A stretch of DNA of 64,000 nt from Candidatus Kerfeldbacteria bacterium CG_4_10_14_0_8_um_filter_42_10 (GTDB lineage: Bacteria > Patescibacteriota > Patescibacteriia > UM-FILTER-42-10). This document shows, piece after piece, positions 22,312 through 62,200 of the stretch (its first letter is position 1; each line of letters starts with the position of its first letter). The notes beneath the pieces are model-generated. The model was not told where the DNA came from and ran no database searches. It saw only the letters and a list, made by a program, of their open reading frames with translations. The DNA is taken from positions 17,858-81,857 of the forward strand of contig PFMD01000024.1 in the NCBI GenBank assembly GCA_002784945.1, written 5' to 3'. A program made the translations under genes and the position numbers.

Positions 22312-22385
22312 TCCGTTAGAAGCCCAACTTAGCTAGCTTTAATCAATCATAAGAGTTAACACTCTCTAAGGAACGAGCTTCTAGA
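22312..22385. mobile_element. MITE-like empty copy of the CCCGTTAGA terminal-inverted-repeat element
   Basis: TCCGTTAGAAGC at left end, GCTTCTAGACGGGA at right end; 74 bp. Confidence 0.5.
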
Positions 22386-22486
22386 CGGGATAAAAGAATT
22401 GACTAAAAAGCCCTCGGTGATAAGATTACTTACCGATCATTGGAAAAAATCTGCCGGATTTAACAGTCATGAGGGAGGTGATTTAA

Positions 22487-33067: not shown

Positions 33068-33239
33068 ACGACACCCGTCTTTCTGCTAAAGGAGCATTAT
33101 GTGACTTTTTGTCGAAGTATTTTAGCATAGGTTAAAAATTATGTCAACCCCGTTAGAAATTTATGTTTTAATAGTAAATATTGTTCATACTTAGACGAAA
33201 TTTCCAAAGGGATTAAGGCTAAAAACTTTAAGCCGCTTT

Positions 33240-33959
33240 TTAGACTAATTTTCTCTCATTTACTTCTCTGGTAAATTCCCCCAATATATTTTCGTCTTTC
33301 GGAAAAACAAGCTGAACCGGTTTTCCCTTTCGAATAGTGTCAGTACGGTAAATTTCGAAATCTTCACTGGAAGCTAAAGCACTGGTAGCATCGCCAAAGT
33401 CTATTAAATAAACGTTAAGCTCGTCATTCACCATAATGTTCTCAAGATGGAGATCGCGATGGTATAATCCCGCCTGGTGCGCTAGATCGATTTGTTGCTT
33501 AATGCCATCTTTAATTTTCTGATACTCTTCTTCGGTAAATTTTTTTCCTTCTTGTTCTCTCTGGTCCAGTAATTCTTTAAGATTCGGTCCGTTAATAGTT
33601 TCCATTATAATAAAGTCTTGTGTTTTCTGGCCGTTCCCTTCTTTTCCCTCAATAAGCATCCAAACCTTCGGCACTCTGACTCCCGCCTCATAATATTCCT
33701 GCTGGAGATCAAATTCTCTGCCAGGACTATTAACAGAAGCTTCGGAATTGTAATTAGTTTTGGCGCAAAGCTTTGTTCCAAACGCTGGGTGATCGCTAAA
33801 CCAAACCTCGGCCGCTTTTCCTTTTCCCAGATTTTCCCGGCGCAGGTATTGTTCTTCCAGTATTTTGCGGGCCAGTTTTTCCTGCTGCTTTTTACTAAAT
33901 TCTGGACCAGCCTCCTGTTCAAAATCTTTGGTTACTCTTAGTGCTCCGACTTCATACAT
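33240..33959 (-). CDS. Protein-kinase-like fold protein (atypical kinase)
   Basis: 239 aa; Gly-rich loop LGKGKAAEVW, catalytic loop HRDLHLENIMV, DFG motif IDFGDA. Confidence 0.6.
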   Translation of the reverse strand: MYEVGALRVTKDFEQEAGPEFSKKQQEKLARKILEEQYLRRENLGKGKAAEVWFSDHPAFGTKLCAKTNYNSEASVNSPGREFDLQQEYYEAGVRVPKVWMLIEGKEGNGQKTQDFIIMETINGPNLKELLDQREQEGKKFTEEEYQKIKDGIKQQIDLAHQAGLYHRDLHLENIMVNDELNVYLIDFGDATSALASSEDFEIYRTDTIRKGKPVQLVFPKDENILGEFTREVNERKLV

Positions 33960-42813: not shown

Positions 42814-44154
42814 TTAGATTTTTTCCTTTAAGTAATTAACCAATTCTTCGATTTTTACCCTCTCCTGCTTCATAGTGTCTCTATCTCGGACAGTCACCGC
42901 TTTGTCTTCTAAAGAATCAAAATCCACGGTGACGCAATAGGGCGTGCCAATTTCATCCTGTCGGCGGTAGCGTTTTCCTATGGAAGCAACTTCATCGTAA
43001 GCCGCCATGAAATTGGGTTGGATTTCTTGATAAATTTCTTTAGCCACTTTTACCAGATTTTCTTTGCGGGACAAAGGCAGTACCGCCACTTTATATGGAG
43101 CCAAATCCTTATGGAGGCGCAGAACTACCTCTTCTTCTTTAATGCTTTCGGTAGTGGTGGTGCGGCCGCCCTTTACTTCGTCATAAGCATCCAGCAGAAA
43201 GGTCAAAGCGGCCCGGTCTACTCCGAATGACGGTTCTATGACGTAAGGAGTGATTTTCTGGTTTGATTCCTGATCATGGTATTCCAGCTTGTGCTGTTTC
43301 AAATCATAATCGGTTCGGTTAGCAATACCCAAAAGTTCCGCCCATCCTTTCTCTCCGCCAGAGGCGGATCCGCCTTGGGCGGAAAAAGGAAATTTGTATT
43401 CAATGTCAACCGTTTCTTTAGCGTAATGAGCCAGTTCTTTTTTCTCTTGAGGACGTTTCTTGATATTTTCTTTTTTAATACCTAAATCTAAAAACCATTG
43501 ATAGGATTGCTCCACCCAATAATCAAACCATTTTTTGTCTTCTTTCGGATCGATAAAATACTCCAGTTCCATCTGTTCAAATTCCCGCGAGCGGAATATA
43601 AAGTTGCCGGGCGTAATTTCATTGCGAAAAGCTTTGCCCACTTGAGCAATGCCAAAGGGCAGCTTTTGGCGCATGGTATCAACAATGTTTTTGAAATTGA
43701 CGAAAATCCCTTGAGCGGTTTCCGGGCGGAGGTAAGCAGCCGAAGCAGAATTTTCTACTGGGCCCACAAAAGTTTTAAACATTAAGTTGAACTCTTTTGC
43801 TTTTTCTAATTCTTTCTTACCGCAATTAGGACACTGACCATTTAAATCTTCTTCCTTAAAACGCTGATGACAACTTTTGCATTCCACCAACTTATCAGCG
43901 AATCCTTTTAAATGCCCTGAAACCTCCCAAGTTTTGGGATTCATTATAATTGCCGAATCCAACCCCACCACATCTGCCCTTTCCTGCACAAACTTTTTCC
44001 ACCACATTTTTTTGATGTTATTTTTCAACTCCACGCCCAAAGGACCGAAATCCCAAAACCCCTGAAGTCCGCCGTAAATTTCCGAGGAAGGAAAAATAAA
44101 CCCTCTTCTCTTCGATAAACTTACAATCTTTTCCATTAAATTTTGTTGAAGCAT
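42814..44154 (-). CDS. glyQS: Glycine--tRNA ligase (homodimeric class II)
   Basis: GlyRS N-terminus MEKIVSLSKRRGFIFPSSEIYGG; start set at MLQQ (track ORF extends 10 codons further, into the GIY-YIG element IR); carries the in-frame 28-nt repeat at 43355..43382. Confidence 0.9.
   Translation of the reverse strand: MLQQNLMEKIVSLSKRRGFIFPSSEIYGGLQGFWDFGPLGVELKNNIKKMWWKKFVQERADVVGLDSAIIMNPKTWEVSGHLKGFADKLVECKSCHQRFKEEDLNGQCPNCGKKELEKAKEFNLMFKTFVGPVENSASAAYLRPETAQGIFVNFKNIVDTMRQKLPFGIAQVGKAFRNEITPGNFIFRSREFEQMELEYFIDPKEDKKWFDYWVEQSYQWFLDLGIKKENIKKRPQEKKELAHYAKETVDIEYKFPFSAQGGSASGGEKGWAELLGIANRTDYDLKQHKLEYHDQESNQKITPYVIEPSFGVDRAALTFLLDAYDEVKGGRTTTTESIKEEEVVLRLHKDLAPYKVAVLPLSRKENLVKVAKEIYQEIQPNFMAAYDEVASIGKRYRRQDEIGTPYCVTVDFDSLEDKAVTVRDRDTMKQERVKIEELVNYLKEKI
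43355..43382. repeat. 28-nt palindromic repeat inserted in-frame in glyQS (encodes AQGGSASGG)
   Basis: Reverse complement is identical to 28011..28038 in atpA. Confidence 0.8.
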
Positions 44155-44158
44155 ATTT

Positions 44159-44443
44159 TTACTTTTTTCTACTCGTCCTCTCAACTTTTTGAGAAAACAA
44201 TTGGTTCTTTAAAGTTCTATAAATCCAATTCTTACCCCAACCAGTTTTTAAAAATTTTTCTCTTTGCGCTGCATCATGCTTATTCCGATGAGCTTCATAA
44301 TACAACAATATAAATGGATGCCTCGACTGCGTAGAAAAATTTTCACCATTATTATGTGAGTTAAACCTCTTACGTAGATCATTTGTCATACCGATATACA
44401 TATTTCCATCTTTTATACTCTGAAGTATATAGACGTACCACAT
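44159..44443 (-). CDS. GIY-YIG nuclease family protein (copy 1)
   Basis: 94 aa; WYVYIL...GNMYIGMTNDLRKRFNSHN; 65% identical over the shared region to the 47868..48083 copy. Confidence 0.75.
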   Translation of the reverse strand: MWYVYILQSIKDGNMYIGMTNDLRKRFNSHNNGENFSTQSRHPFILLYYEAHRNKHDAAQREKFLKTGWGKNWIYRTLKNQLFSQKVERTSRKK

Positions 44444-44465
44444 ATTCTCAAAAAGTTGAGAGGGT
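44177..44465 (-). mobile_element. GIY-YIG cassette bounded by 19-bp hairpin-containing inverted repeats TTCTCAAAAAGTTGAGAGG
   Basis: Left arm 44177..44195 is the reverse complement of right arm 44446..44465; right arm abuts the GIY-YIG start codon; the left arm encodes the protein C-terminus FSQKVER. Confidence 0.6.
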
Positions 44466-44531
44466 AAAACCGCGCCTCTTGGCTAAAGAGACAATTTTTT
44501 CCATTAAATTGTTTTCTTCTCTCTCGATCAT
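44448..44531 (-). pseudogene. Remnant duplicate of the glyQS 5' end (MIEREENNLMEKIVSLAKRRGFTLSTF)
   Basis: 15-aa stretch NLMEKIVSLAKRRGF matches glyQS residues NLMEKIVSLSKRRGF; reading frame terminates inside the cassette inverted repeat. Confidence 0.55.
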
Positions 44532-44570
44532 AATGAATAAATTATACCAATTTTACAGTTTTTACACAAA

Positions 44571-44618: not shown

Positions 44619-47408
44619 TCACAACTCCTCGGCTTTTTCAATTCGAATGGTTCCGCCTTTTTCCAAAACAGCAACATCCCTGCGGCCAACCTTGCCCGAA
44701 AGCATATATTTGGCTAAAGCACTGTCTACTTTATCCTGGATTACTCTTCTTAAAGGCCGAGCTCCAAATTCAGGGTGAAATCCTTCCCGGGCCAGTTCGA
44801 CAATCGCTTCCTGGTCCGCTTTTAGTGTGATTCCCTTTGGAGCAAGCTGGAGGGCGACTTTATTTAATTCCAATTGAGCAATTTGTACTACCTGATCAAA
44901 CGTTAAGGGTTTGAATACGACGATTCCATCAAAGCGGTTCAAAAATTCCGGGCGAAAATAGCCTTTAAGCACCTGGCCTAAAACTTGTTTTTGAATCTGG
45001 TCAGTGGTTAGACCGGCTCGCATCCCTTCTTGAATTTGGGCGGTACCGGCATTAGAGGTAGCGATCAAAATAGCATTGGTAAAATCAATGGTTCTTCCCG
45101 CTCCATCGGTAAGGCGGCCATCGTCCATCACTTGTAAAAAAACATTTAAAATATCAGGATGCGCCTTTTCTAATTCATCCAGCAGTACTAGGGAAAAGGG
45201 TGCAGAACGGACCGCTTCTGTTAAATACCCTCCGGCGCTGGCCCCTTTGTAGCCGGGCGGCGCTCCAATCAAACGGCTGAGCGAGGATTGGTCTTGGTAT
45301 TCCGACATATCCAGCCGGACCATTTTAGTCTCCGCTCCAAAGTAAACTTCCGCCACGGTCTTGGCTAATTCCGTTTTGCCTACGCCGGTGGGGCCGACAA
45401 AAAGAAAATTGGCAATCGGCCGGTTGGTATCTCTAAGCTCAGCCCGGGCTCTTCTTAACGCTTCGGCTACCAAATGCACCGCCTCATCTTGCCCCACTAT
45501 TCGGGCGTGCATCTTTTCTTCTAAATTGATCAGCAGATCTTCTTCTTCCATGGTCACCGTTGTTACCTTTACGTTTGTTTTTTCCGAAAGTACGACGGCC
45601 ACTTCGTTTTTTCCAACAATGGCATTTTCTCCTTTGGTTTCTCGAGTATAAACTGCGGCCTCTTCCATAATATCTAAAGCCTTGGAGGGCAAATAACGAT
45701 CGTGAATATACCGGCGGGAAAGTTTGACGGCGTTTTCAATGGCATCATAAGAAAAGAATACCTTATGGCGATATTCCATTCCGCCGGACCTGGCTTCTAA
45801 TACTTGAATAGCGGCATTGTCATCCATTTCCTCTACTTTAACCACTTGGAAGCGGCGCATAAAGGCATCGTTGTTTTTAAGATAAAGATTAAAGTCGGTT
45901 GTAGTCACAACGCCGATTACTTGAATTAACCCTTGAGATAAGGCGTTGGCTAAAATGCCTGCAGCATCCTGTGCCCCTGCTGTGCTGCTAGCACCCACCA
46001 GATTAGCAATATCATCAATAAATAACGTAACGTTTCCGGCGGAAGTGGCTTCGTTAATTGCGGTCATCATCCGGCCTTCAATTTCCCCTTGGGCATGGGT
46101 GCCGGCAATCAGCCCGCCCGTTTCTAAACTAACCAAGCGCTTATCCTGAAGAACCTTAGGTACGTCTTCGGCGGTCATTCTCTCAGCAATTCCTTCGCCA
46201 ATAATTGTTTTGCCCACACCGGCATCACCGACCATCAGCACGTTACCCAGCCGCTGTTCCAAAATCCTCAAGACTTCATCCATTTCCTTTTCCCGGTCAA
46301 TCAGCGGAAATAAGGCGCCGGCCCGGGCCGCTAAAGTCAGGTCTCTACTAAACTGATCCAACGTAGGAGTGGGCCGCGCCGTCATGGCCCGATTCATAAT
46401 ATTTTTAGGCTTCAGCTGCGCTTTGGAACGGAAGCGGCGCCAACGCTCCTGAAGCAGTTTGGTGATGTGGATCCATTCCGCGACGTTTTTCAACTTATTG
46501 AAATCAACCTCTAAATCATAAAGAATTTCCTGAGCCACTTTATGGGTTTTAGCAATAACAATGAGCAACTCCGTAACATCCACCTTATCCCGACGTAAGC
46601 TGCTTGCTTCAACGTAAGCCATAAAAAGCAGATTGTAGAATTCGGGCGAAAAACCGGTCTGTTCGCCAATAGTGTACTGTTCCTGCTTTAATGCCCTTAT
46701 TACTTTCTGCATTAAAAGTTTTGCGTTTATTCCCATTCGCCCGAAAATCACAGCGCTCTGCTTAAGCGTCAAAAGTGAAGCTAGTAAATGAAGGGAGTGC
46801 ACTTCACTATGTTTTAGCTTTCGCGCCAACTTCCATGACTCTTCGACTAATTTAAGCGCGTCTTCGGTGAAAGTCTTGCTGATATCAATTTTTTTGTCTT
46901 TAGGCAACGATTCTGCCTGGTCGAAAGTTAGCGGTGCGGAGAGAGGCACGGCAGTGGTATAACTTCCTTTTTTCACCGAGTGTTTTAGTTTCTCTTCCTG
47001 ATCGATCCGGTAAAAAATGTAAAGATCTCCTAAAAGACTGATCCAGAATAAAAGCAGACCGGGCTTTTTCAGGTTTAATAAATCAGAAATTGCCGAGATC
47101 TGCTCTAAAGAACGCACGACTTCTAAAAAACCAAGTAAGATTCCTAAGACCGCCAATAAAATCAGCAGGCCGTTAATGGTAATCCGGATTCCCCTTTCCA
47201 GTTTATCTTCTACAATCGAAATAGTATTCATCTTCTTGCCCCAATACAAAGCATCGCCTAGATAATAGGCATATGCTCCCAAGCCGTTGCATTTGGAACA
47301 GCGCACTTCTTCCTTGCTGCTAATTAGGCGCGAATAACCGTTACACCGATCGCAAGGAATAAGCCCAAGAGACTCTTTTTCTGGTTCTTTACTTGTGTAG
47401 AATGCCAT
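44619..47408 (-). CDS. Clp/Hsp100-family double-AAA+ ATPase with N-terminal zinc ribbon and two TM helices
   Basis: 929 aa; CDRCNGY...CSKCNG zinc ribbon; two hydrophobic helices; Clp-N repeats; D1 GDAGVGKT; D2 GPTGVGKT; short D1-D2 linker, so no ClpB-type M domain. Confidence 0.8.
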   Translation of the reverse strand: MAFYTSKEPEKESLGLIPCDRCNGYSRLISSKEEVRCSKCNGLGAYAYYLGDALYWGKKMNTISIVEDKLERGIRITINGLLILLAVLGILLGFLEVVRSLEQISAISDLLNLKKPGLLLFWISLLGDLYIFYRIDQEEKLKHSVKKGSYTTAVPLSAPLTFDQAESLPKDKKIDISKTFTEDALKLVEESWKLARKLKHSEVHSLHLLASLLTLKQSAVIFGRMGINAKLLMQKVIRALKQEQYTIGEQTGFSPEFYNLLFMAYVEASSLRRDKVDVTELLIVIAKTHKVAQEILYDLEVDFNKLKNVAEWIHITKLLQERWRRFRSKAQLKPKNIMNRAMTARPTPTLDQFSRDLTLAARAGALFPLIDREKEMDEVLRILEQRLGNVLMVGDAGVGKTIIGEGIAERMTAEDVPKVLQDKRLVSLETGGLIAGTHAQGEIEGRMMTAINEATSAGNVTLFIDDIANLVGASSTAGAQDAAGILANALSQGLIQVIGVVTTTDFNLYLKNNDAFMRRFQVVKVEEMDDNAAIQVLEARSGGMEYRHKVFFSYDAIENAVKLSRRYIHDRYLPSKALDIMEEAAVYTRETKGENAIVGKNEVAVVLSEKTNVKVTTVTMEEEDLLINLEEKMHARIVGQDEAVHLVAEALRRARAELRDTNRPIANFLFVGPTGVGKTELAKTVAEVYFGAETKMVRLDMSEYQDQSSLSRLIGAPPGYKGASAGGYLTEAVRSAPFSLVLLDELEKAHPDILNVFLQVMDDGRLTDGAGRTIDFTNAILIATSNAGTAQIQEGMRAGLTTDQIQKQVLGQVLKGYFRPEFLNRFDGIVVFKPLTFDQVVQIAQLELNKVALQLAPKGITLKADQEAIVELAREGFHPEFGARPLRRVIQDKVDSALAKYMLSGKVGRRDVAVLEKGGTIRIEKAEEL

Positions 47409-47802
47409 TGATAATGGTAATTAAATGATGCTCCTTAATCTCGGATAATTGGAAAATAATGGAATAGATAATGAAAACGGGTAAAATCAACCAAATAATA
47501 AACAGGATCACCAACACAACAACCCAGATCACCGTGGTCAGCAGTAGAAAAAAGAAATGGAAAATTCTTACAAAAAAACTGATTAACCGGCCGCTGCGCG
47601 AATAGTCGCCATACATCGGCTTAAGCAAATTAGCAAACAGAATCTTTAGGGAAAGCGCTTCGGCTAAAGAAGAAATTTGCCGGCCAATAAAAAACAGCAC
47701 TTTTTTAGTGCCGGTGGTGTACCACCATACTGGAAAATAGAAGATTTTGCCAATCAGCTCAATAAAAACATATTTAAGCGCGTTGATAAACGCATTACTC
47801 AT
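47389..47802 (-). CDS. Hypothetical membrane protein (3-4 TM)
   Basis: 137 aa; start codon directly abuts the CCCGTTAGAG element end. Confidence 0.45.
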   Translation of the reverse strand: MSNAFINALKYVFIELIGKIFYFPVWWYTTGTKKVLFFIGRQISSLAEALSLKILFANLLKPMYGDYSRSGRLISFFVRIFHFFFLLLTTVIWVVVLVILFIIWLILPVFIIYSIIFQLSEIKEHHLITIINGILHK

Positions 47803-48077
47803 CCCGTTAGAGAAAGGAAGCGCTTCAGACGATTTTTTAGATATCTTTTACCCATACCTGATTTTAGTTATTTTTCTCTAGTAAAAGCATCGCCTTTATT
47901 AAAACACGCTTCATAATAAATTAGAATAAATGGCCCACGACCTTTTGTAGAAAGTATCATATTATTGTTATGTTCCTTAAAGCGCTTCCGTAAATCAATA
48001 GTACAACCCGTATACCAATCATTATCTTTTTTACTTTGAATAAGATAAGTATACCACGCTTTGTTTTCTCTAACGGG
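47803..48077 (-). mobile_element. CCCGTTAGA terminal-inverted-repeat element carrying a GIY-YIG gene
   Basis: TCATCCCGTTAGAG at 47799..47812 and CTCTAACGGGACTCAT at 48068..48083 form inverted ends flanking the GIY-YIG ORF. Confidence 0.55.
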
Positions 48078-48083
48078 ACTCAT
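47868..48083 (-). CDS. GIY-YIG nuclease family protein (copy 2, C-terminally shorter)
   Basis: 71 aa; WYTYLIQ...WYTGCTIDLRKRFKEHN; lacks ~20 C-terminal residues present in copy 1. Confidence 0.6.
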   Translation of the reverse strand: MSPVRENKAWYTYLIQSKKDNDWYTGCTIDLRKRFKEHNNNMILSTKGRGPFILIYYEACFNKGDAFTREK

Positions 48084-48172
48084 GAATATATTTTAGCATA
48101 TTTTTGATGAATTGTAAACCCCGTTAGAAACATAGCTTCTCACAAGGATAAGTAAAAAAATGGTTTTAAATT

Positions 48173-51180: not shown

Positions 51181-54100
51181 CTAAAACGGCAATCCAATCT
51201 GACCCACCCAGGCAAAGGTTTCTTCTAAGTTAGAAATAACCAGCTGGAGGAAGGATTCTCTTTTGCGGGAGGTTAAAACCGAATAGGAACCGGATTTGGA
51301 TTCATTTCCGGCTTTATCAACGGCCACTACCCGAAAGCGATAGGTCTTGGCCGGAGCCAGTTCCGAGATTACCACTAAATGATCCATGACCAGTTCGGCG
51401 TTTGCTTCCGTCTGTTCGGTGAATTCCGTGCCGGAAAGGCCTACGCCAAATTCTGCCTGAGAAGTGGTTGGTTCGTTGGTTTTCCAATTGACGATGATCT
51501 GGACCGAGGAGGTTTCCCCCGCTCCAATCGTGTTGGATTCGGACTGGATTCCCGTGATTACCGGCGGGGTGGTATCTTCCAGCGTAGTAAAAGTATTCAC
51601 TTCGGATACGGCCTGGTAGCCGAACTGGTCAAAGCCTTTGGTTTTGAACTGGTAGGCGGTAGCATCTTCCAAACCGAATAGGAGAATGGAGTGGGTAGTG
51701 ACCAGGGCGGAGTTGCCTTGAGTTTTAGGGGCAATGGAAGAGTTGTAGTACTCTACTTCCGAAGTGGTAAGAACATTAGTGGTCCAGCTGATTTCGGTCT
51801 GTCCTTCGGATTTGTTTTCAAAGGATATGGAGAGTACTTTCGGAAAAGTCAGAGTAGTAAAGGAATAATCGCTTGATTCCGGGGAATTGCTGGTAGAATC
51901 CAGTCCGGTGGGCCTAAAGTGGTAGGTGGTGCCATCAGTAAGACTGGCAAGCTTCATAGTATGAGTAGTGGTGAGCGAGCCGGAGGTATCGGCCACCGTA
52001 AAGCCATAATCCACGGCAGTTCCATAGTCTAGCTTGGTGGTAGTGGGTTTGTTAGTGGTCCAGGTGATCAGAGCATCAAAGAGCTTAACGTCTGATACCA
52101 CCACTTCTGAGACACGGGGGGCTTCTAGAGTGGTGAAAGTAGCAATGCTGGAGAGAGCGACGTTGCCGTCTTGGTCTCTGGATCGAATCCGATAATAATA
52201 AGTAGTTTTCGATTCTAGTCCTTCCAAAACAACTGTATGTTTTTCACTTTCTTCAATCGTTCCCTGTTCTTCGCCAAATTCTTGAGTTAAACCATATTCT
52301 ACATGCGAATCAGCATTTCTTTCCGTTTCCCAAGTTACGTTTGCGGAAAAGGAATCCGGCGTTACAGTTGGTCCAGAGGTAATCTCTGGAGGGGTAGTAT
52401 ATCTTCCTTCGGGAATGTCTGAAACAGTTGTAGAAGCAGCGGAGGTAGCTCCGGCCGTGTCTTTAGCCTTAACCTTGTAATAGTAGGTTTCCGAGTTATC
52501 CAGACCGACATCCAGGTAGCCGTAGGAAGTGATTTCTGCAATAGATTCAAAGTGATCATCATCATCAACGGACCGTTCGATAATATAGGTGATTTCTTCC
52601 CCATCGGAAGCACTGCTTTGGGTTACTTGTTCCCAAACTAGGGTAATGGAATAAATTTCCGCTTCCCGATTGGAAGAATCGGTAATAATCAATCCGGTAG
52701 GAATCGAGGGGGCTTCAGTCTCCGCCTCAAAATCAATCGAAGCGTAGTTGGAGTAATTAATGTTGTTGTCTTCGTCAATCGCCACCACATAGAAAGTGTT
52801 GGTACCCTGCTGGGTAGCATAGGGGCCGGGGCCGACATATTCGTTGGTGGTATAAGAAACATTTTCTTCCGTAGGAGTGGAGTTGATGGAATAGAAATAG
52901 CCCTGGACCGTCACCCCTTCATCTAAGGGCGGGTCCCAGGTGAACTTAAAGGAGTTTTCCGTGTTGTATTCCGGAGTAACAGCAAGGTTGGTGGGAGCAG
53001 ATAAAGCATCAGCGGTGGTAAAGGTGTAATCGGAAGAATAGCCGGTATTATCATCTTCATCGGTCCATCTCGCCCGGTAATGGTAGGTGGTGTCAGGTTC
53101 CAGGGCAATGAGGGTTACTTCATGGGAAGTGACAAAGTCTTCCTGGCCCTGTTCCTCGCCATAGGAGGTGGCAGTACCGTATTCCACAAAAGAGGAGCCT
53201 TCCCGATCAGTGAGCCATTCTACTGTGGCGGATTGGATCCGGGTGGTTACTCCGGGAGTGCCAACTAAATTAGGCGGTACGTAATATCTTCCCCGGGCCT
53301 GCTCGCAGACTGCCGTGGAGGCGGCGGAGACGGCATTGGCGTTATCCGCTGCTTTGATCCGGTAACAATACCAGGCATTCTGGGTCAGACCGGTATCTAA
53401 GTAACCGGTGCCGGCCACTTGGGATATCTCTGAGTAGTTAACCCCTTCATCTTCGCTTCTTTCCACGTTGTAATGATCAATGCCGGAACCAGTGTTTTCC
53501 GGCTCATCCCAGGTAACAGTTAAGGAGAATTTGTCCTGGGCCCGGTTGGAGGTGTCAGTGACAATTACGCCTACAGGGATACCGGGAGCAGAAGTGTTAG
53601 CGGTGAATTCTATGGAAGAGTAAGCGTTGTAGTTGACGTTGCCGGCCGCATCTTCCGCTACTATGTAAAAAGTGTTGGTGCCCTGCTGGGTAGCGTAGGG
53701 GCCGGGGCCGATAGAGGTAGCAGTGGTAGTGGAGGTATTGAGAGCGGTAGGCAGGGCATTGATGGAATAGTGGTAGCTGGCAATAGAACCGCTGTAGATG
53801 GCCGGAGCACTCCAGGAAAAAGTGAAAGAGTTGGTAGAAGTTGGTTCGGCAGGGTCTACGGCTAAATCTTGGGGTTCGGAAGGAGCCGAGCCGTTGTAAT
53901 AGTAGTTTACTTGGGCATAGGAAGAAGCGAGGTTTCCGGCCTCATCTTTGCTTCGGACATAGAAAACATTAACGTTTTCCTGGTAGGATTCGATGCCAGA
54001 GACGGAGGTGCCGGAGATACAGGTTTCGACGAATCCTTCTTCGCCTGTTTTGTAGCAGTATTCCCCTATTCCGGAATCATCATCTGATCCGGCGGACCAA

Positions 54101-56214
54101 AGGAAGGTGAAGGAATTAACGTTGGAATATCCGGCCGGGTCGGCAGCGGCGATGCCGGGGGAAGTAGGAGCGGTTGAGTCGAATTTGTAGATAAAACCTT
54201 GGTAGGTAGTAGTTACGGTATTACCCACTAAATCGTAGGCTTTTAGGCGAAGATAGTAAGTGTTGCCGGAAGTCAGAGAAGAAAAAGTGCTATTATCCTC
54301 ATTATGGCTGGAACCGTCGTCTTCGGGATCGGCAGAATTATTTAGACCGAAATACACGTAATAGCCGGCCACTCCGGAATCAGGATCAGTAGCGCCTGAC
54401 CAGGTGCAGTAGATATTGTCATCGTTGTACCAGGTATCAGTGGTCAGTTCGGTACCCATGCCCGAATCGGTATAACAGTGAGCCGAGGTAACATTAGAGC
54501 TAGGAGGATCCACATCTTTGAGATAATAGATGGTGATATCGGAAAGAGTGGGGTTGGAAACGCCATCTGTTTGGGTCAAAGTGGCTCTAACTTGAAGATA
54601 CCGATAGGTTTTGTAGGTACTTTGAGGAAACTGGGTTTCTAAGGTAGCGGCAGAAACGCCATATCTGCCGCTGTTGGCATCCTCGTCCGTCATATCATAC
54701 CAAGAAGTCCAGGAAGAACGGTTAGTGGATAACCTCATTTCAAAATCGATATTAGTGTTGGCTGGTATAGTTACCGAGGATTCAAGAGCATTGCCATTGC
54801 CATTATCGCTCCAGCCGCCATTCCAAATAACATCTATGGCATTAGCGTCAGAAGGTGAAGTCCAGGTACCGGAAGATTGAAGCGTGGCGGCTTCGATTCC
54901 TACGGATGTGGAAGGTTCAGGCGATGAATATTTCCTTATCAATTCTTTGCCCGGATAGTTGGTGGTCACGTAGCCGTAATTGCTGTAGAGATCGGCTATT
55001 TCGCCAGTGGTAAGGGTGTGACTATAAACACGCGTCTGATCTATCTTTCCATACCAGTCATATGCGACGCCCGATGACATTGTAAAATTATTGGCAGCGG
55101 GATTGGTATAAGTAGCGGCACCGCAAAGCGAATTATCATAATAAAGATTCGTATTTCCAGTATCAGTAGCAACATTAAAAACATAATGATGAAAATTACC
55201 ATCCGCTGCGTTTGCCGGGATCGTGCAAAATGAATTCGTATCGCCATTCCAAGTATTTAAGCTGATCTTACCATTATAGAAAAATGCGTCCGGTCCGGCG
55301 CCATTCGGTCCAGTTCGCCAAAGCATGCCGTAAGGGTTCGGCGGTACGGCATCAACTACCCACATGGAAATAGCAACTGCCGTCCCAACCGCCGTACTGG
55401 TCGTAATATAATTATTATTGCCTGCAAAATTCCTGGCATTACCGAACTTTCCCGTATCAACAGTCGTGCCGGTAGGCGTTCCTGTGTAATTATTTCCCGA
55501 TGTATCTGCAACATTTCCAGAAGCTTCATCCAAGGTCCACGCGCCAATTACTCCGGTAATCTCCCTAATAAACGTATTCGCTATTGATGATTGACTGGCA
55601 GCCGAACCGCTTCCATAATATAAATAAATACTTTTTGAACTGGAAGCAGGGATTGAAGGCACTTCCACCCAGATTTTAGAAGAAGCGTTATTGCAAGGAC
55701 CATCCAGCCAAAAATCCAAGTTGGTTGAATCATCAGCATCCTTGAACCTGATATCATCACAGTCGCCTTGCATCTTACTGGCCAATATTAAAGCAGCGGT
55801 ATCTAAAGTTAAAGATACTTGATAATTAGTTAAAGTATTAGAGTTACTGCTGTTATTAATAGTAAGGGTTCTTTTGTATTGAGTATTATCCGGCCCGGCT
55901 GAACCAGCCAGTCTCACTTCCCCGCCGCTGATACTTTGGGATACTGCACTAGAGAAGGTTCCTTGATCAAACTGGGCTTGAGTGGTAATGGATTTGAAAT
56001 CCTGAGTAGGAGCGGCTTTAGTGATTGGTCCCTGGTAAAGGAAGACGGCGAGAGCGAGAATCAATAAAACAGAAATACTGGTTTGGATCCAGTATTTTTG
56101 GCGGTAAATCTGAAACTTTTTTTGATATACGCTAAGCGTGGCTAAAGCAGCTTTTAGCTTTCGCTTTAAATCCTTCTCATTGCCACTTTGTTTTTTTTCT
56201 TTCTCCTTCTTCAT
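51181..56214 (-). CDS. Giant membrane-anchored surface protein (DUF2341-like + LamG-like + multiple FN3 domains)
   Basis: 1677 aa; N-terminal TM anchor; DUF2341-like and concanavalin/LamG-like modules; more than 8 FN3-like repeats; C-terminal ~1000 aa closely paralogous to the next gene. Confidence 0.8.
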   Translation of the reverse strand: MKKEKEKKQSGNEKDLKRKLKAALATLSVYQKKFQIYRQKYWIQTSISVLLILALAVFLYQGPITKAAPTQDFKSITTQAQFDQGTFSSAVSQSISGGEVRLAGSAGPDNTQYKRTLTINNSSNSNTLTNYQVSLTLDTAALILASKMQGDCDDIRFKDADDSTNLDFWLDGPCNNASSKIWVEVPSIPASSSKSIYLYYGSGSAASQSSIANTFIREITGVIGAWTLDEASGNVADTSGNNYTGTPTGTTVDTGKFGNARNFAGNNNYITTSTAVGTAVAISMWVVDAVPPNPYGMLWRTGPNGAGPDAFFYNGKISLNTWNGDTNSFCTIPANAADGNFHHYVFNVATDTGNTNLYYDNSLCGAATYTNPAANNFTMSSGVAYDWYGKIDQTRVYSHTLTTGEIADLYSNYGYVTTNYPGKELIRKYSSPEPSTSVGIEAATLQSSGTWTSPSDANAIDVIWNGGWSDNGNGNALESSVTIPANTNIDFEMRLSTNRSSWTSWYDMTDEDANSGRYGVSAATLETQFPQSTYKTYRYLQVRATLTQTDGVSNPTLSDITIYYLKDVDPPSSNVTSAHCYTDSGMGTELTTDTWYNDDNIYCTWSGATDPDSGVAGYYVYFGLNNSADPEDDGSSHNEDNSTFSSLTSGNTYYLRLKAYDLVGNTVTTTYQGFIYKFDSTAPTSPGIAAADPAGYSNVNSFTFLWSAGSDDDSGIGEYCYKTGEEGFVETCISGTSVSGIESYQENVNVFYVRSKDEAGNLASSYAQVNYYYNGSAPSEPQDLAVDPAEPTSTNSFTFSWSAPAIYSGSIASYHYSINALPTALNTSTTTATSIGPGPYATQQGTNTFYIVAEDAAGNVNYNAYSSIEFTANTSAPGIPVGVIVTDTSNRAQDKFSLTVTWDEPENTGSGIDHYNVERSEDEGVNYSEISQVAGTGYLDTGLTQNAWYCYRIKAADNANAVSAASTAVCEQARGRYYVPPNLVGTPGVTTRIQSATVEWLTDREGSSFVEYGTATSYGEEQGQEDFVTSHEVTLIALEPDTTYHYRARWTDEDDNTGYSSDYTFTTADALSAPTNLAVTPEYNTENSFKFTWDPPLDEGVTVQGYFYSINSTPTEENVSYTTNEYVGPGPYATQQGTNTFYVVAIDEDNNINYSNYASIDFEAETEAPSIPTGLIITDSSNREAEIYSITLVWEQVTQSSASDGEEITYIIERSVDDDDHFESIAEITSYGYLDVGLDNSETYYYKVKAKDTAGATSAASTTVSDIPEGRYTTPPEITSGPTVTPDSFSANVTWETERNADSHVEYGLTQEFGEEQGTIEESEKHTVVLEGLESKTTYYYRIRSRDQDGNVALSSIATFTTLEAPRVSEVVVSDVKLFDALITWTTNKPTTTKLDYGTAVDYGFTVADTSGSLTTTHTMKLASLTDGTTYHFRPTGLDSTSNSPESSDYSFTTLTFPKVLSISFENKSEGQTEISWTTNVLTTSEVEYYNSSIAPKTQGNSALVTTHSILLFGLEDATAYQFKTKGFDQFGYQAVSEVNTFTTLEDTTPPVITGIQSESNTIGAGETSSVQIIVNWKTNEPTTSQAEFGVGLSGTEFTEQTEANAELVMDHLVVISELAPAKTYRFRVVAVDKAGNESKSGSYSVLTSRKRESFLQLVISNLEETFAWVGQIGLPF

Positions 56215-56229
56215 TATTCTTACAAAAAC

Positions 56230-59200
56230 CTAGAATGAACCGCCGATCCTTCCAATCCAAGAGAAAGTTTCCTCCAGATTAGAAATAATCAGCTGTAAAA
56301 ATGATTCTCTTTTTCGGGAGGTCAACACGGTATAAGCGCCGGATTTAGTGGTATTTCCCGCTTTATCTCGGGAAACCGCTCTAAAGCGGTAAGTTTTAGC
56401 CGGAGCAAGATCTGAAATAACCACTAAATGATCCATGACCAGTTCGGCGTTTTCATCGGTTTGTTCGGTAAATTCGGTTGCTCCCAAGCCTACTCCGTAT
56501 TCCACCTGAGAAGTAGTCGCCTCATTGGTTTTCCAAGAGATGATGATTTGCACTTTGGATTCTTCACCGGCGCCAATCGTGTTTGATTCCGACTGAATTC
56601 CGCTTACCACTGGCGGAGTGGTATCTTCTAAGGTAGTGAATTCATTCTCATCGGAAACCGCTTCATAGCCGAATTCATCTGATCCTCTCACTTTAAACTT
56701 ATAGAGAGTGGCGTCTTCTAATCCATAAAGAAGAATAACATGCTCTTTCACCATGGCGGTATTACCTTGCGTTTTGGGAGGAATATTTTCACTGTAGTAT
56801 TCCACTTCAGAAGTAGTTGGCACATTAGTGGTCCAAGTCACTTCCGTCTGTCCTTCGGACTGGTTGCGGGAAGAAACGGTTAGAACTTCAGGAAAGGTTA
56901 GAGTGGCAAAGATATAATCATCCGAAGCAATCGGATTGCCGTTGCGGTCTTCACCGCCGATTCTTAAGTGATAAGTAGTGCTGTCAGTTAAACCTTCCAG
57001 CTTAACGGTATGAGTCAGGGCGTAGGATCCGGAAGTATCAGTATAAGTCAAGCCGTAATTAGCCGTAGTGCCGTATTGAATCACGGCCGTTGATTCTTTG
57101 TTAGTTTCCCAACTGATAATTGCATCATACAGTTTAACATCACTGATTTTTACCTCTAATACTCTGGGCGCTTCTAAAGTGGTAAAGCTGTCAATCTCGG
57201 AATAAGCGATATTCTCATCAACGTCAATACTCTTTATTCGATAATAATAGGTGGTTTCCGATTTTAACCCCGTAACTTCAATCTCATGTTTTGCGATTAA
57301 ATCAGCGGTACCTTGTTCTTCCGTTAAATCATTGGCCTTTAAACCAAACTCGACGAAAGAAGAAGCGATTCTTTCCGTTTCCCAAACGATGTCAGCGGAA
57401 AACGAATCCGGCGTGGCGACAGGTGATACGGTAATGGCCGGCGGCTGGGTATAGCGGCCTTCAGGTACTTCTGAAACTATGTCAGTAGCTTTGGATGCCG
57501 CACCGGCTTTGTCTTCTGCAACAACTTTATAGAAATATTCTTTAGAGCTATCAAGACCGGTGTCTAAAAATCCGGTTGAGGTAAATCTGGCAATTTCTGA
57601 AAAACTGTCTTTTTCCCCAACTTTGCGATAAAGAGAATAGTAAACTATTTCAGTTTCATCTTCTGAAGATGACGTTTCATATCCTTCGGGCGGGTCCCAA
57701 GTAATGGTAATGGAATAACGCTTGGCATCACGATCAGAGGAATCGGTAATAGTCACAGCTTGTGGAGGTCCCGGAGGTTCGGTCTCGGCTTCGAAGTCAA
57801 CCGATGCATAATTGGCATAATTGATATTGCCGGAGTCGTCCACCGCCACCACATAAAAAGTATTGATTCCTTGCTGAGTGGCAGCGTCGTAAGGACCAAT
57901 ATAAGTATTGGCGGTAAAAGAGACATTGTCTTCAGTGGGAATATTATTCACCACATAAAAATATCCGGCTACGGTAACACCCTCGTCAGTGGGAGCGCCC
58001 CAGGTAAACTTGAAGCGATTAACAGTGTTGCATTCCGGGTCAACCTCTAGATTGATAGGAGCAGATGGCGCGCCATTGGTAGTAAAAGTGAAATCACTGG
58101 AATAACCGATGTTACCGTCAATATCCACCCATTTGCAGCGGAAATGATAGGTCGTTTCCGGAGTTAAATCAGTCAAAGTAACTTCATGCTCACTAACCAT
58201 ATCAGATGTTCCAGTTTCATTACCGTAGGAAGCTGTTTCCCCATATTCCACAAAAGAAGTCGCCGGATGAGGAATAATGTTTCCTTCTCTATCCTGATCA
58301 TCAAGCGTTAGCCATTCAACCACCGCAGAACGAATTCTGGTTTGAACGCCCGGCTGACCGCTCATAGAAGGGGCGCTCTTAAACTTTCCTTCCGGCTTCA
58401 TTTCTACTAAAGCAGAGTTACCCGAAGCGGCATTTCCCGGACCAATCGCTCTGGTGAAGTAAGTATAAGTAATGGTATTATCAAGGCCCGTATCTAAATA
58501 ACCCAAAGTGGAAGTAGAGGCAATTTTAGTGTAATTATCAGGAGGATCATTTACGGTAGAAGGATTCTGGCAATCCTCTTCACAACGGTAGATATTATAC
58601 AAATCAACTCCCGCTCCTACATCATCCGGTTCATCCCAAGTCAGAGTAATAGAATAACGGCTGGTGGATCGATCAGATGAGTCTGTAGCCTGAATGCTGG
58701 CAGGTACTCCCGGCGCAGTAGAATCAAAAATATAGGTTGCGGTAACATAATTACTGTAATCAATATTATTGATTAAGTCAGTAGCAACGATATAAAGAGT
58801 ATTAGTACCCTGCTGGGTAGCGGCGGAGAACCCTGACAATAAGCGATTGGTTGTCTGGGTATCAGTAGTCCAACCGCCATCCGGACTTGGGGTAGTGCTG
58901 CCGCCTGTATTAGTCCCGCAATTGACAGCGTTTGGCAACTCGTTAATGGTATAACAGTATCTTAAAATATCACTGGCTTCACAAGGCGTTTGTCCTAAAC
59001 AGGTGTCCGGTAAACTCCAGGAAAATGAAAAAGTGTTATTGTTGGTTTGAGATGTTGGTGAAACCACGACGCTCGCCGGAGCGGTAGGAGCTTCGCCGGC
59101 ATAATAGTAAGTGGTGGAAGCGTAACTGGAAGAATAATTACCCGCCCCATCTTTCGCCCGAACATAAAAGGTATTACCTCTGGATTGATAAGCTTGAATG

Positions 59201-62200
59201 CTGGAAACGCTGGTATTGGAAGAAGCGATACAGGTATCTTCCGCGCCTTCGGCTCCGGTTTTATAGCAATAATAAGCCACACTGGAGCCGCCGGTATCAG
59301 AAGAAGCGGTCCAGGAAAAAGCAAAACTATTGGTGGAAGAATAACCAGATGGCGAAACGCTGACTCCCGTGGGATTAGAAGGGCTGATGATATCTAATTT
59401 AAAGGTATAAAGCACCCCTGAAGATAAAGCCGTATTATTATTAATATCCTTGGTCCGGATAATAAGATAATAAGTACCCGAGGTTAAAGCGGAAGCGCTT
59501 TGGGTAGCGGCGTTCCAGGAACCGGTAGTGCCGCCTGAAACAGTATAGAAATTAGTTCCGCTTTTATAGGCCTTATTAGTAGGATCAGCCGCATTATCTA
59601 TCGGATCCAAGCTGCTATTTGTCCCAAAATAAACATAAAATCCATCAACACCAATTCCACCTGAATTATCGGTGGCGGTCCATTCAAAATAGGGATTAGC
59701 ATCATAAGTCCAAGTATTATTACTGATAGAAGTAGCTTTAGTATTATCAGTATAACCCGATGCGGAAGAAGGATTAGTAGGAGCAGTAGCATCTGAATAA
59801 TAACTCAACGTAATATCATTAACTGTCGGGGTGTATATTTGATCGGAGGAAAACGTAACCCGGACTTGCACATACCGCGCTGGCGTAGAGTCAACCGTGT
59901 AGTAATCGGTTGAACCGTACGTGAATTGGTTTGACACCTCATCCCAGTCTGCCCAGTTGGCGTCGTCAGGATCGCTCGAACAGCCAGCGTCAGAGCAGGA
60001 ACGAATTTCGTACTTAAGCGATGTGTTTGTCTGCGTCGTATCATTCACCGTCAGGCCGCCGAAGTCGTAGATCGATCCAAGGTTAAGAATCTGCGAGGTC
60101 CACGTGCCGTTTTGTTCGAACCCTGTTGACGAAGAGGCGGGCACGAATCGAGTCAGTGCCGAAGTATTGTAACCGCGAAAACCGTAGAGAATACCGTTTG
60201 TACCTGTCTCCAGAGCGCCATAATACCAGTATTCGTCATTCGTACTTATCGTACCCCAGCTGTCGCCAGAAATGCTGTATACGTAGACGTTCGTGTTCGC
60301 GTTCGTGCCGGCGACGACGTAAATCAGATCACTGCCGTCATAGGTACACGCGTCGGACTGGTAGATGTTCCCAGGCGCATCGGTAAGCGTCGTCGCTCCG
60401 TCCCACGTCTGGGTGCCGATGTTGAATCGGAAGATATCTGCGGTATTCTGTGCGCGGATCTGGTAGATGTAGTCAGTGCCGCCATCGCTCGCCTTTACCG
60501 CACAGCCACCTTGGTAGACGGCTGCTGGAACAGTTGACGCGACGGTGGACCAGGTATCCGTGGCGATGGTGTACTTGTAGTTTGTTGTCGTATTCTGTCC
60601 GCGGACAGTGTAGATCGCACCGTCCTCGCCGTTGACAAGATTCGCTCCGTAGCCGAGCCACGCCGGTGCGGCGTTGCCATTTGACCACATATTAGTCGCC
60701 ACGTCGTAGATATACATTTTTGACTCATTATCTTTATTGTATGATCCGGCCGCATAAACCTTACCACCCACATAGACAACATCCGAGCCGACATACATAG
60801 GGATCGGGGCGTCCATCAAGCGCTCATGCGTGCCGGTCGAGATCGTGTACTTGTAGAAATCCGTAGTGTTGTTCCCCCGCACGTAGTAAATGGTATCACC
60901 CCCATCGTAGGTGATGCCGCCATAGTAGAAGCCGTTAGACGTCTGGTCGTGCGGGATGCCCGTGTTCAGCCATTTATTGTTTCTTACGTCATAACTGTAG
61001 AAAGAGTACTCATTATACCCACGAAGCATATAAATGATATCTGTGTTTGTATCATAGACCATCCCTGCACTCGATCCGAAGTAGTGTGTTGAGGGAAGAC
61101 TGGCGAGAGGATCCCAGCGGTCATTCAAAATATCATATGAGAAGAAATTATCCGACGCGTAACCACGGGTCGCATAAATAGTACCGTTATTGTAGAGAAG
61201 CGCTCCGCCATACTGGACGTAGAACGGAATGGCTGTTATGTTCGTCCAGGTGTTCGCGCTGACATCATAGCGGAGAAATTGCGACGTACTTGCACCACGC
61301 AGGGCAAAAATGCATCCTAATGCGTCGCTACAGTAAGTACCATTCGGAACAAAGACTGCTGATGAACCGTAGTTGAACGCGTACGACGGAGAGCTCCTTG
61401 TGACCCAACTGTTTCCAGAAATGCTGTACCGGTAAAACTCGGTCGAGTTGTTTGACCGGAACGCAAAGATATAATCACCGCCGTTCCATACCATGGACCC
61501 GCCGTAACCGACGCCGGTGCCGCCGTACGCTTGGAGCGCCGTCCACGTATTTGCGCCGACATTATAGCGGAGGAACTCCGTTGAATTATTGCCAACGAGC
61601 GCGAAGACGCACCCCGAAGCATCCGCACACTGGGTGCCATTCGGGATGTAGGTAATGGTGGTTCCGTAGTATGCGTTCGCCGTGCTGGTGATGTCAGCAA
61701 GCGACGACCATGTTTTTGACGAGATGGTGTACTTGAAAAAACTTTTGGAGTTCACGGATCGGAGAACAAAGATTGTATCATCACCATCGAAGGCCATAGC
61801 TGTATCGTTATACGCCGTTGTTAGTGCTGCTGTGCCGAACGTAGACGGCAGGTCCATCCACAACCCCTCCGCAATAGAGGATAAAGTCATTGCGGTTCCT
61901 GTGCCCGCTGCGGTGTTAACGTTGGAAGATGTTGTCCCGGCCGCTTCAAAGTCTGCCTGGACCGTCCACGTCTGCGTTGAGGCGGGCGATATACCATTAT
62001 AGGTGTATGTAAAACCGGACACCGCCGAAGATGTATTGCCTGCGTTATCCTTTGTCACAATCCGCAGGTAGTACGTCGTACCGCTTACTAAATCCGTGTT
62101 CACCTCGTACGTCGTACCCGTCTGATAGTAGTCCTCGCTCGAGGAAGGGTCAGCCGATCCGTTTGTCGTCCACTGCACGTAGTAGCCGGCAATACCGGAA

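Follow-up and report, generated by a model that had tools for sequence, protein, structure and literature searches.

The locus described here raises the question of what a very small GIY-YIG nuclease gene, enclosed exactly by inverted repeats, is doing at the start codon of another gene in a Patescibacteria chromosome. The window, meaning the whole stretch of DNA analysed, comprises 64,000 nucleotides of Candidatus Kerfeldbacteria bacterium CG_4_10_14_0_8_um_filter_42_10 (assembly GCA_002784945.1, contig PFMD01000024.1, positions 17,858 to 81,857 of the forward strand). Its neighbourhood is core chromosome, with genes for phenylalanyl-, methionyl- and glycyl-tRNA synthetases (PheRS, MetRS, GlyRS), ClpB, ATP synthase and ABC transporters. 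The answer that we favour, and hold to be likely, is that the gene and its repeats belong to a family of very small transposable elements of Patescibacteria (the Candidate Phyla Radiation, CPR), in which the GIY-YIG nuclease serves as the mobility enzyme by way of the paired ends. As judged from comparisons of filled and empty sites, it is close to certain that the elements are mobile.

The 9-mer CCCGTTAGA occurs six times in the window (43% G+C), at 3618+, 3725−, 33149+, 47803+, 48069− and 48120+. Only 0.39 occurrences were expected from 100 dinucleotide-preserving shuffles of the window, none of which reached six. The original prediction, made from the letters of the window, had described this motif as recurring in inverted pairs at three sites, the third pair bracketing a 71-amino-acid (aa) GIY-YIG gene. 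All three pairs were found, two of them perfect and the one at 22311 degenerate; the third is a 14-bp repeat, TCCCGTTAGAGAAA, perfect between 47802–47815 and 48065–48078, around the open reading frame (ORF) at 47868–48083 on the minus strand. The element boundary reaches one base further on each side (T...A) than had been proposed. The features of this copy and of its host gene are as follows.

47802–48078, minus strand: full-length element of 277 bp, Y-CCCGTTAGAG...CTCTAACGGG-R, sitting at the start codon of a membrane-protein gene, as delimited by comparison with the related genome L011
48065–48078, minus strand: left terminal inverted repeat TCCCGTTAGAGAAA, coding residues 2–7 (S-P-V-R-E-N) of the GIY-YIG protein
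47802–47815, minus strand: right terminal inverted repeat TTTCTCTAACGGGA, coding the C-terminus ...L-S-L-T-G in intact relatives
48079–48082, minus strand: upstream copy of the target duplication, TGAG, which with A48083 is the original host start codon, now that of the GIY-YIG ORF
47798–47801, minus strand: downstream copy of the target duplication, TGAG; A47802, the last base of the element, plus TG rebuilds the host ATG at 47802–47800
47868–48083, minus strand: GIY-YIG ORF of 71 aa, matching PF01541 at E = 1.2e-13 and 51.6 bits (cutoff 22.6)
47802–47867, minus strand: 22 further codons (LKSGMGKRYLKNRLKRFLSLTG), still in frame past the TAA in the alignment
47980–47989, minus strand: internal segment GGAAGCGCTT (codons R-K-R-F), complementary to 47816–47825
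47816–47825, minus strand: subterminal segment AAGCGCTTCC, holding the palindrome AAGCGCTT, adjoining the right repeat and conserved at synonymous sites
48090–48118, minus strand: host promoter read from the sequence, with −35 TTTACA (48113–48118), a 17-bp spacer and −10 TAAAAT (48090–48095)
47389–47802, minus strand: host gene for a 137-aa membrane protein, its start codon invaded

The window ORF is cut to 71 aa by one in-frame TAA (47868–47870), which stands in place of Tyr72 in the alignment with 94-aa relatives. The catalytic residues are retained and the last 23 residues are lost. Because there is a single nonsense codon, with the LKSGMGKRYLKNRLKRFLSLTG codons and the former stop TGA behind them (47801–47799, overlapping the host ATG) both intact, the window copy is read as a recently disabled full-length element. 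On the plus strand, the flanking 4-bp direct repeat reads CTCA at 47798–47801 and 48079–48082. Since the ORF begins at the host ATG in the upstream duplication, the element takes over the host promoter and start site; the host gene still has a start codon, an ATG or GTG restored from the terminal purine of the element and the duplicated TG. Two copies had been said to adjoin an ATG on the opposite strand, and both do, with ...TCTAACGGG followed directly by ATG for the genes at 2394–3617 (−) and 47389–47802 (−). The −10 box lies 6 nt before the GIY-YIG ATG in the window, and the same promoter lies 6 nt before the membrane-gene ATG in L011. With so short a distance, the GIY-YIG transcript would probably be leaderless.

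Comparison of filled with empty sites gave evidence for movement. L011, a related Kerfeldbacteria sequence and the closest genome fetched, shares 83% protein identity over the 137-aa membrane protein and reads ...AAAATATGCTAAAATATAAAC-ATGGAT-AATGCATTTGTAAACGCGCTTAAATATG, with the −10 box joined straight to the membrane-protein gene. In the window, the same promoter runs ...ATATGCTAAAATATATTC-ATGAGT, followed by 277 bp and then ATGAGT-AATGCGTTTATCAACGCGCTTAAATATG, and the extra stretch relative to L011 is exactly 47802–48078 plus one TGAG. The motif CCCGTTAGA is absent from all 17.8 kb of L011. Presence or absence at orthologous loci, which had been named as a check, was therefore seen at the very site in question, the same promoter being joined to the same gene without the GIY-YIG unit. 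When metagenome contigs were scanned for exact matches to the empty site predicted for the window copy, none was found; the L011 site matches it at 85% identity.

Two further pairs of loci show the same pattern for copies without the gene. Locus L119 is identical to L061 (flanks 100%) save for 50 bp, which consist of C, 44 bp, G and a second TGGG. This 46-bp mini copy is an insertion inside a GIY-YIG element and, as it carries no gene, the two repeats alone suffice in cis. Locus L073 differs from L047 by a 68-bp copy plus TGTG. The target duplication was thus seen directly in three filled-versus-empty comparisons (window/L011, L119/L061 and L073/L047). The elements of L076 and L080 share 97% DNA identity within unrelated flanks, and L074 holds identical tandem copies with one duplication in common. 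Clean presence and absence with 4-bp duplications indicate that gene-less copies, too, have been mobile recently. Terminal inverted repeats, a 4-bp duplication, polymorphism and copies at unrelated sites are hallmarks of an insertion sequence (IS), and the family carries them.

Tandem arrays of mini and full-length copies were also observed (L115 27–400, L074 24–590, and the upstream flank of L061/L119), with the same tetranucleotide between the copies (junctions GTAAAC or GCTGGC). Such arrays suggest that new copies repeatedly entered the duplicated target beside an existing one.

The family was surveyed in a scan of Joint Genome Institute (JGI) metagenome contigs, which held at least 560 GIY-YIG relatives among the first 600 candidates listed, and 80 loci were fetched. 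Most of these share one layout, in which a host leader ends in ATGAA, T-CCCGTTAGAG ... CTCTAACGGG-A follows, and TGAAN leads into the host gene. The CCCG-to-CGGG distance is exactly 275 bp in most of the 80 loci, and the downstream genes are mutually unrelated. The window and all loci, pooled (~0.94 Mb), yielded 117 non-redundant inverted pairs in the following size classes.

About 275 bp: 71 of 117 pairs
58–125 bp: 30 of 117 pairs; one further pair, of 208 bp, is a composite
27–45 bp: 12 of 117 pairs
Over 300 bp, composite or interrupted copies: 4 of 117 pairs

The gene-less copies of 27–125 bp (n = 42, non-redundant, the window copy at 3617–3734 included) qualify as MITEs (miniature inverted-repeat transposable elements). 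The proposal of a small family of about 275 bp with non-autonomous derivatives was well founded, as the unit measures 277 bp and the gene-less copies share only its ends. The base outside CCCG...CGGG is T...A in 65 of the 117 pairs and C...G in 41; being paired, it belongs to the repeat. Identical 4-bp direct flanks were found at 67 of the 117 copies, and TGAA accounts for 40 of these, with TAAA, TGAG, TGGA, TCAA and CTGG among the others. The target logo reads A80 T91 G80 A87 A85 (per cent), with only A-richness further out. The preferred target is (A)TGAA, which in AT-rich hosts is most often a start codon followed by AA.

Of the 71 full-length copies, 42 adjoin the start of a long ORF, as do 14 of the 30 short ones. 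In all 43 full-length copies whose orientation could be read, the ORF and the abutting gene run in the same direction. In L030 and L036–L045, the GIY-YIG gene is called at 3001–3285 and the next gene from 3282, giving a 4-nt ATGA overlap. An invertible promoter or DNA inversion switch was considered and rejected, as a single orientation was seen in 43 of 43 cases and the polymorphism is one of presence and absence, not of inversion.

The protein collection contained, at E < 1e-5, more than 1000 homologues of the 71-aa protein. The homologues all carry PF01541, and the 120 best share 65–80% identity; the few that bear organism names are Patescibacteria. Most homologues are single-domain proteins of 94 aa that start M-[NS]-P-V-R-E and end ...R-L-K-R-F-L-S-L-T-G. 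The inverted repeats, read as codons, give ATG AAT CCC GTT AGA GAA at the start and CTT TCT CTA ACG GGA TGA at the end, such that the left repeat forms codons 2–7, the right repeat the last five codons, and the ORF fills the element completely. Intact ORFs are present in 31 of 37 distinct full-length copies, whose median pairwise dN/dS over the core is ~0.13. These values indicate a protein under purifying selection and functional. The tyrosines of the GIY and YIG motifs (Y13, Y24), R32/R34 and E58 are invariant in 16 sequences.

The hidden Markov model check suggested for the 71-aa protein gave the Pfam GIY-YIG match listed above, and sequence and fold comparisons placed it with the Slx1/UPF0213 type. 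The nearest solved sequence is the UPF0213 protein BH0048 (1ZG2; E = 3e-9). An AlphaFold model (pLDDT 85) searched with Foldseek matched Slx1 best (7cq2, 4xm5, 6seh), followed by 1ZG2 and plant HIGLE; E values were 3e-4 to 1e-2 for the Slx1 entries and 1zg2, 0.8 for I-TevI and 2.7 for UvrC. By sequence and predicted fold, the 94-aa protein belongs with Slx1/UPF0213, not with UvrC or I-TevI, and the best matches of the model are to nucleases that act on branched or structured DNA. A tblastn search against plasmids returned just two weak matches, YazA (UPF0213-type) and an unannotated ORF, and no relatives were found in viral contigs.

The fold bears on the idea of a free-standing homing endonuclease gene, which would cut the uninterrupted allele and be copied in by homologous repair. 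GIY-YIG is indeed a classic homing-endonuclease fold, and a weak match to TIGR01453 (group I intron endonuclease) was obtained at E = 3.5e-5, below cutoff; the fold is nevertheless far nearer Slx1/UPF0213 than I-TevI, and the protein has only 94 aa and lacks a DNA-binding domain. Many unrelated genes are hit, their flanks share no homology, terminal inverted repeats and target duplications are present, and 46-bp copies without the gene insert cleanly. We regard homing as barely credible here.

A different alternative accepts the mobility and assigns it to another enzyme. The CCCGTTAGA units would be MITEs moved by a conventional transposase encoded elsewhere (e.g., a DDE enzyme making 4–5-bp duplications), and the GIY-YIG gene a passenger fixed in one MITE lineage, maybe as a host-beneficial or addiction-type nuclease. 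No larger element with the same ends was found in the 0.94 Mb, where pairs more than 450 bp apart lack matching extended repeats, and none of the ~30 window ORFs scanned matched a transposase or integrase family. This alternative can draw on the terminal inverted repeats and 4-bp duplication, which are classic DDE signatures, on the established view that strand transfer by GIY-YIG enzymes is not known, on the movement of gene-less copies that carry no gene, and on a sample of only ~0.94 Mb. It is harder to reconcile with the GIY-YIG form being the majority (71 of 117 non-redundant copies), and an ORF that runs from repeat to repeat across copies ~73% identical, at the dN/dS given above, is hard to square with a passenger. 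Another GIY-YIG family of this genome, described below, has its own different repeats that also code its C-terminus, and a transposase that binds duplex DNA does not predict the covariation of the arms set out next. We consider a conventional transposase with a passenger nuclease unlikely. The GIY-YIG nuclease is the sole ORF in the element, no alternative enzyme having been found in the 0.94 Mb or among the scanned window ORFs, and it is probably the transposase.

Covariation of the element's ends was measured in 37 full-length elements that are ~73% identical in DNA. In the 14-bp terminal stem, 99.2% of cells are complementary and four positions carry changes on both sides; none of 500 shuffles reached any of four measures of covariation. 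At repeat position 12, 22 sequences have A:T, 8 have T:A and 4 have C:G. On the right arm, the base concerned is the third position of a Leu codon and right-arm changes are synonymous Leu codons, so the complementarity is not imposed by the protein. Gene-less copies read AAGC, ATAA, AAAT or ACAG at repeat positions 10–13, always complementary within the copy. A second helix, GGAAGCGCTT-AAGCGCTTCC, is 98.9% paired in the 37 elements, and in seven sequences it shows a CG to UA compensatory change reached via two synonymous changes. The covariation of the arms points to a folded single strand.

Both helices appear in minimum-free-energy and centroid RNA folds (z-scores −3.8 and −5.3), and one-sided changes on the sense strand comprise ~12 G.U against ~3 A.C. 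Such RNA folds and sense-strand wobble pairs, together with ends that lie at start codons or beside −35 boxes, are what would be expected if the motif were a regulatory or RNA-structural element (mRNA stem-loops, operators) kept for gene control, with the GIY-YIG gene an ordinary chromosomal gene inside one pair. Presence and absence between near-identical sequences with 4-bp duplications, the same unit before unrelated genes, insertions inside other copies and the tandem arrays of L074 and L115 all speak against that explanation, as does the lack of any Rfam family match in the window. Empty sites, unrelated hosts and nested copies argue for insertion rather than in-place regulation, which we therefore rate as very improbable; an RNA role acquired after insertion is compatible with the transposable-element explanation.

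In the model that we favour, the nuclease would recognise a folded single strand in which the two repeats have paired, and would cut at the base of the stem and at the target; host polymerase and ligase would do the filling and sealing. Gene-less copies, which keep only the repeats, are moved in trans, and the host gene would be translated by stop–start coupling through the ATGA overlap. The nearest analogies for such a mechanism would be the hairpin-dependent cleavage of single-stranded DNA (ssDNA) by Ssn nucleases and the single-strand transposition of IS200/IS605. In the original prediction the family had been called GIY-YIG-mobilised; the mobile element is borne out, and the nuclease as mobiliser is a strong inference, not a demonstration.

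Several points weigh against this model. We infer from the sequences, rather than observe, that the GIY-YIG protein cuts the ends or joins DNA. GIY-YIG enzymes are hydrolytic nucleases with no known strand transfer, and for the joining step there is thus no known catalyst. Duplications of 4 bp are a usual trait of DDE transposases; single-strand transposition of the IS200/IS605 type does not make them, and the model does not explain how a hydrolytic nuclease would give rise to one. About one in ten copies has inverted, not direct, 4-bp flanks, which the model likewise does not explain. The wobble asymmetry is a weak hint in favour of one strand, and the folded species may be DNA or mRNA. The window's own copy is truncated and cannot itself be autonomous. 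All of the sampled DNA lies near GIY-YIG copies or in one 64-kb window, so a separate transposase elsewhere is possible.

The inverted flanks (e.g., TTTCAC...GTGAAT and GCTCGC...GCGAGC) lengthen the palindrome; they were seen at L053 12484, L055 11092 and 11306, L087, L095 and others.

The closest published parallel is the Ssn system. Ssn nucleases are single-domain GIY-YIG proteins of ~94 aa that in vitro bind ssDNA hairpin repeats directionally and cut beside them, and do not cut double-stranded DNA or RNA; their genes are flanked by NTS/SRM hairpin repeats, which number hundreds in a genome (Chenal et al. 2025, Nat Commun, PMC11893778). The authors stated that the repeat-ssnA-repeat arrangement "is identical to" an IS architecture, and proposed domestication, with the repeats acting as transformation modulators (PMC11893778). 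The present elements resemble this system in the size and single domain of the nuclease and in having, on either side of the gene, an inverted-repeat motif that recurs elsewhere in the genome. The covarying arms and the sense-strand wobble bias are also reminiscent of the directional recognition of a folded single strand by Ssn. Unlike the complete 20–50-nt hairpins outside the ssn gene, the repeats here are half-sites inside the coding sequence and form a hairpin only across the whole element, and the element protein is nearest to UPF0213 by sequence (1ZG2, YazA). The claim that such an arrangement had not been described holds in part. The Ssn layout was already published, and the same paper contains no report of mobility, of duplicated targets or empty sites, of mobile copies lacking the gene or of insertion at start codons (PMC11893778). 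Our literature search did not turn up any account of a GIY-YIG element that has inverted ends, duplicates its target, inserts at start codons or has MITE derivatives.

Other mobile elements share some of the features. With DDE-type IS and MITEs (IS630-like and IS1380-like elements, Neisseria Correia elements) the family has in common terminal repeats, a fixed short duplication, a target preference, an autonomous form with gene-less derivatives that share only its ends, and nested and tandem insertions. It differs from IS in that the sole protein is a 94-aa GIY-YIG protein and not a DDE, HUH, serine or tyrosine enzyme, that the ORF has neither its own start codon nor its own promoter, and that the repeat arms covary as a helix. 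The smallest known IS is IS200, at ~700 bp, and the 277-bp element is less than half that size. The likeness to IS200/IS605 and to REP/RAYT systems would lie in dependence on an ssDNA hairpin, strand specificity, a short target, tiny size and many hairpin-only derivatives; those systems differ in using HUH Y1 enzymes for covalent cutting and rejoining, in their subterminal hairpins and in the absence of a target duplication. Rickettsia palindromic elements (RPE) are likewise short palindromic mobile repeats tolerated in or at the edge of coding sequences of a reduced genome. They lie in frame within ORFs and have no known autonomous partner, unlike the start-codon position and coding master copy found here. 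Integron attC sites were considered for the likeness of the GTTAGA / TCTAAC cores and rejected, as the order and orientation of the cores misfit a cassette and target duplications are present.

Among GIY-YIG proteins, prokaryotic stand-alone Slx1-like/UPF0213 proteins (YhbQ, YazA, BH0048) are regarded as vertically inherited repair-type genes (Dunin-Horkawicz 2006, PMC1564403). The element protein shares their sequence and fold, a minimal GIY-YIG domain without accessory domains; unlike theirs, its gene is bounded by transposon ends, multi-copy and polymorphic in position. In CPR rRNA genes, GIY-YIG ORFs have been described in non-intron insertions that do not behave like homing (Tsurumaki 2024, PMC11270868). 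Like these insertions, I-TevI and Seg proteins, the family is a selfish element with a GIY-YIG nuclease; unlike homing genes (I-TevI, Seg), it has no long specific target, DNA-binding domain or need for flank homology, and has repeats and duplications instead.

The family thus joins the association of Ssn nucleases with hairpin repeats to the biology of IS and MITEs, and the chance that it stands for a new class of transposases is considerable. Should the nuclease be what moves the element, GIY-YIG would join the short list of transposase chemistries and the lower bound on the size of an autonomous mobile element would drop. Among self-contained transposons seen so far, this one may be the smallest. 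A broader proposal is that single-domain Slx1/Ssn-like GIY-YIG proteins form a further prokaryotic transposase class, with the smallest autonomous element (277 bp, 94-aa enzyme), a paired-end ssDNA intermediate and start-codon capture, and that the Ssn/SRM repeats of Neisseria, Wolbachia, Rickettsia and others stem from the same transposition rather than from host-evolved regulation. On that proposal we are evenly divided. A role of the nuclease as mobility enzyme would give a concrete natural function to the recently discovered Ssn ssDNA nucleases, whose role outside Neisseria is open, and add the sequence-level proof of movement that the Ssn work lacked. Start-codon takeover, in which the host ATG is borrowed and a rebuilt ATG is returned via the ATGA overlap, is an unusually economical form of parasitism in minimal CPR genomes. 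In practical terms, annotations give these ORFs the labels 'excinuclease ABC subunit C' or 'GIY-YIG nuclease' and the elements go unnoticed, and downstream start codons are likely mis-set. As programmable tools for work on ssDNA, the matched specificities of nuclease and hairpin are of interest too.

Besides the full-length copy, the window contains the following gene-less and decayed copies.

3617–3734, minus strand: 118-bp gene-less MITE-like copy with 13-bp repeats TCCCGTTAGAAGC, between the ABC ATPase and ABC-2 permease genes
3613–3616, minus strand: downstream target duplication of the 118-bp copy, TGAA
3735–3738, minus strand: upstream target duplication of the 118-bp copy, reading GTGAA with G3739
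22311–22390, no strand assigned: degenerate 80-bp gene-less copy, TTCCGTTAGAAGC ... GCTTCTAGACGGGA, with flanks CAAA/TAAA alike at 3 of 4 positions
33148–33212, no strand assigned: decayed 65-bp copy, CCCCGTTAGAAAT ... ATTTCCAAAGGGA, complementary at 10 of 13 positions, with flanks TCAA/TTAA
48119–48148, no strand assigned: decayed 30-bp mini copy, CCCCGTTAGAAAC-ATA-GCTTCTCACAAGGA, with flanks TAAA/TAAG, directly upstream of the promoter and absent in L011
4792–4818, no strand assigned: 27-bp hairpin with a doubly substituted, still complementary motif variant, CCCGTCAGA...TCTGACGGG, of uncertain family membership

In the 118-bp copy, the repeat (3617–3629 / 3722–3734) is perfect over 13 bp and the terminal A supplies the ATG of the permease; its ends are conserved in copies from L066 and L075. 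The plus-strand flanks read TTCA at 3613–3616 and 3735–3738, and the GTG within GTGAA was probably the original start of the permease. In the 80-bp copy, the arms at 22311–22323 (TTCCGTTAGAAGC) and 22377–22390 (GCTTCTAGACGGGA) differ by one mismatch and one extra base. The two ends described originally as solo, at 33151 and 48109, lie in fact at 33148 and 48119. Each has a degenerate inverted partner (33200–33212 and 48135–48148), which makes them decayed short copies and not single ends. The window therefore holds one full-length copy, one intact 118-bp derivative and three or four decayed short copies. The position of these 'solo' ends against perfect −35 boxes had suggested an upstream promoter element or operator. 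This candidate was rejected, because L011 lacks the copies and because TTGA and TTTA at their flanks are tetranucleotides favoured as targets.

The window contains another GIY-YIG gene of 94 aa (ORF 44159–44443, minus strand; element 44177–44463), which is 60% identical to the first. The inverted repeat around it, CCTCTCAACTTTTTGAGAA, is a different one, perfect over 19 bp, and each arm is in itself a small hairpin. Homologues in other Patescibacteria (L126, L130, L136) have related ends, CCCTCCCAACTTTTT / AAAAAGTTGGGAGGG, and the C-terminal residues (SKKLGG / SQKVGRT) are coded by the right arm. The locus has the appearance of a sister family of elements that brings its own start codon. The element lies within the 5' end of the gene for glycyl-tRNA synthetase (window 44100–44540, minus strand), and no clear 4-bp duplication was seen at it. 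It is flanked by a diverged direct duplication of ~50 bp of the first codons of that gene (NLMEKIVSLAKRRGF / NLMEKIVSLSKRRGF), and because these codons are duplicated around the element the synthetase gene stays intact. The same insertion is present in L136 (1–400). In L011 (13310–13460) the duplicated 5' piece is kept, with ~65 bp between the copies and no GIY-YIG ORF.

Two further loci of the survey deserve mention. In L067 (1327–1432), the pair CCCGTTAGAGAT...ATCTCTAACGGG surrounds an intact tRNA-Pro(CGG) gene (1345–1416, minus strand), and, outside the pair, the flanks look like two halves of a further tRNA-Pro-like sequence. A tRNA-bearing element inserted in a tRNA gene is possible, by cargo capture or gene rescue. 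L014 (CAYGGS010000024.1) is labelled 'uncultured Gammaproteobacteria' and encodes a relative of the Kerfeldbacteria membrane protein. It has two gene-less CCCGTTAGA copies at start codons, one of which splits an ATGA stop/start overlap, and its label is probably a binning or taxonomy error.

Rfam and tRNA scans of the window gave no matches. The stretch at 3740–3835, between the ABC ATPase stop and the 118-bp copy, is G+C-rich with nested inverted repeats, GGGGTAGCGGCAAGCCCTCGCTGGCCGCCCGGG...GACGAAAGCAAGGGCTTTCGTC; it has no Rfam match and may be a terminator or another repeat. Three very large ORFs (16599–22100, 51181–56214 and 56230–63810, minus strand; 1833, 1677 and 2526 aa) may encode surface proteins of the kind typical in CPR. 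Window genes mostly lack a Shine-Dalgarno sequence (e.g., 12871–15771, 33240–33959, 48083), and an argument that insertion displaces this sequence was rejected on that account. Several of them have a TAAAAT/TATAAT box just 6–12 nt before the ATG, which suggests that leaderless or very short-leader mRNAs are widespread in this organism. The gene at 22487, for a STAS-domain protein, departs from this pattern and has GGAGGTGA.

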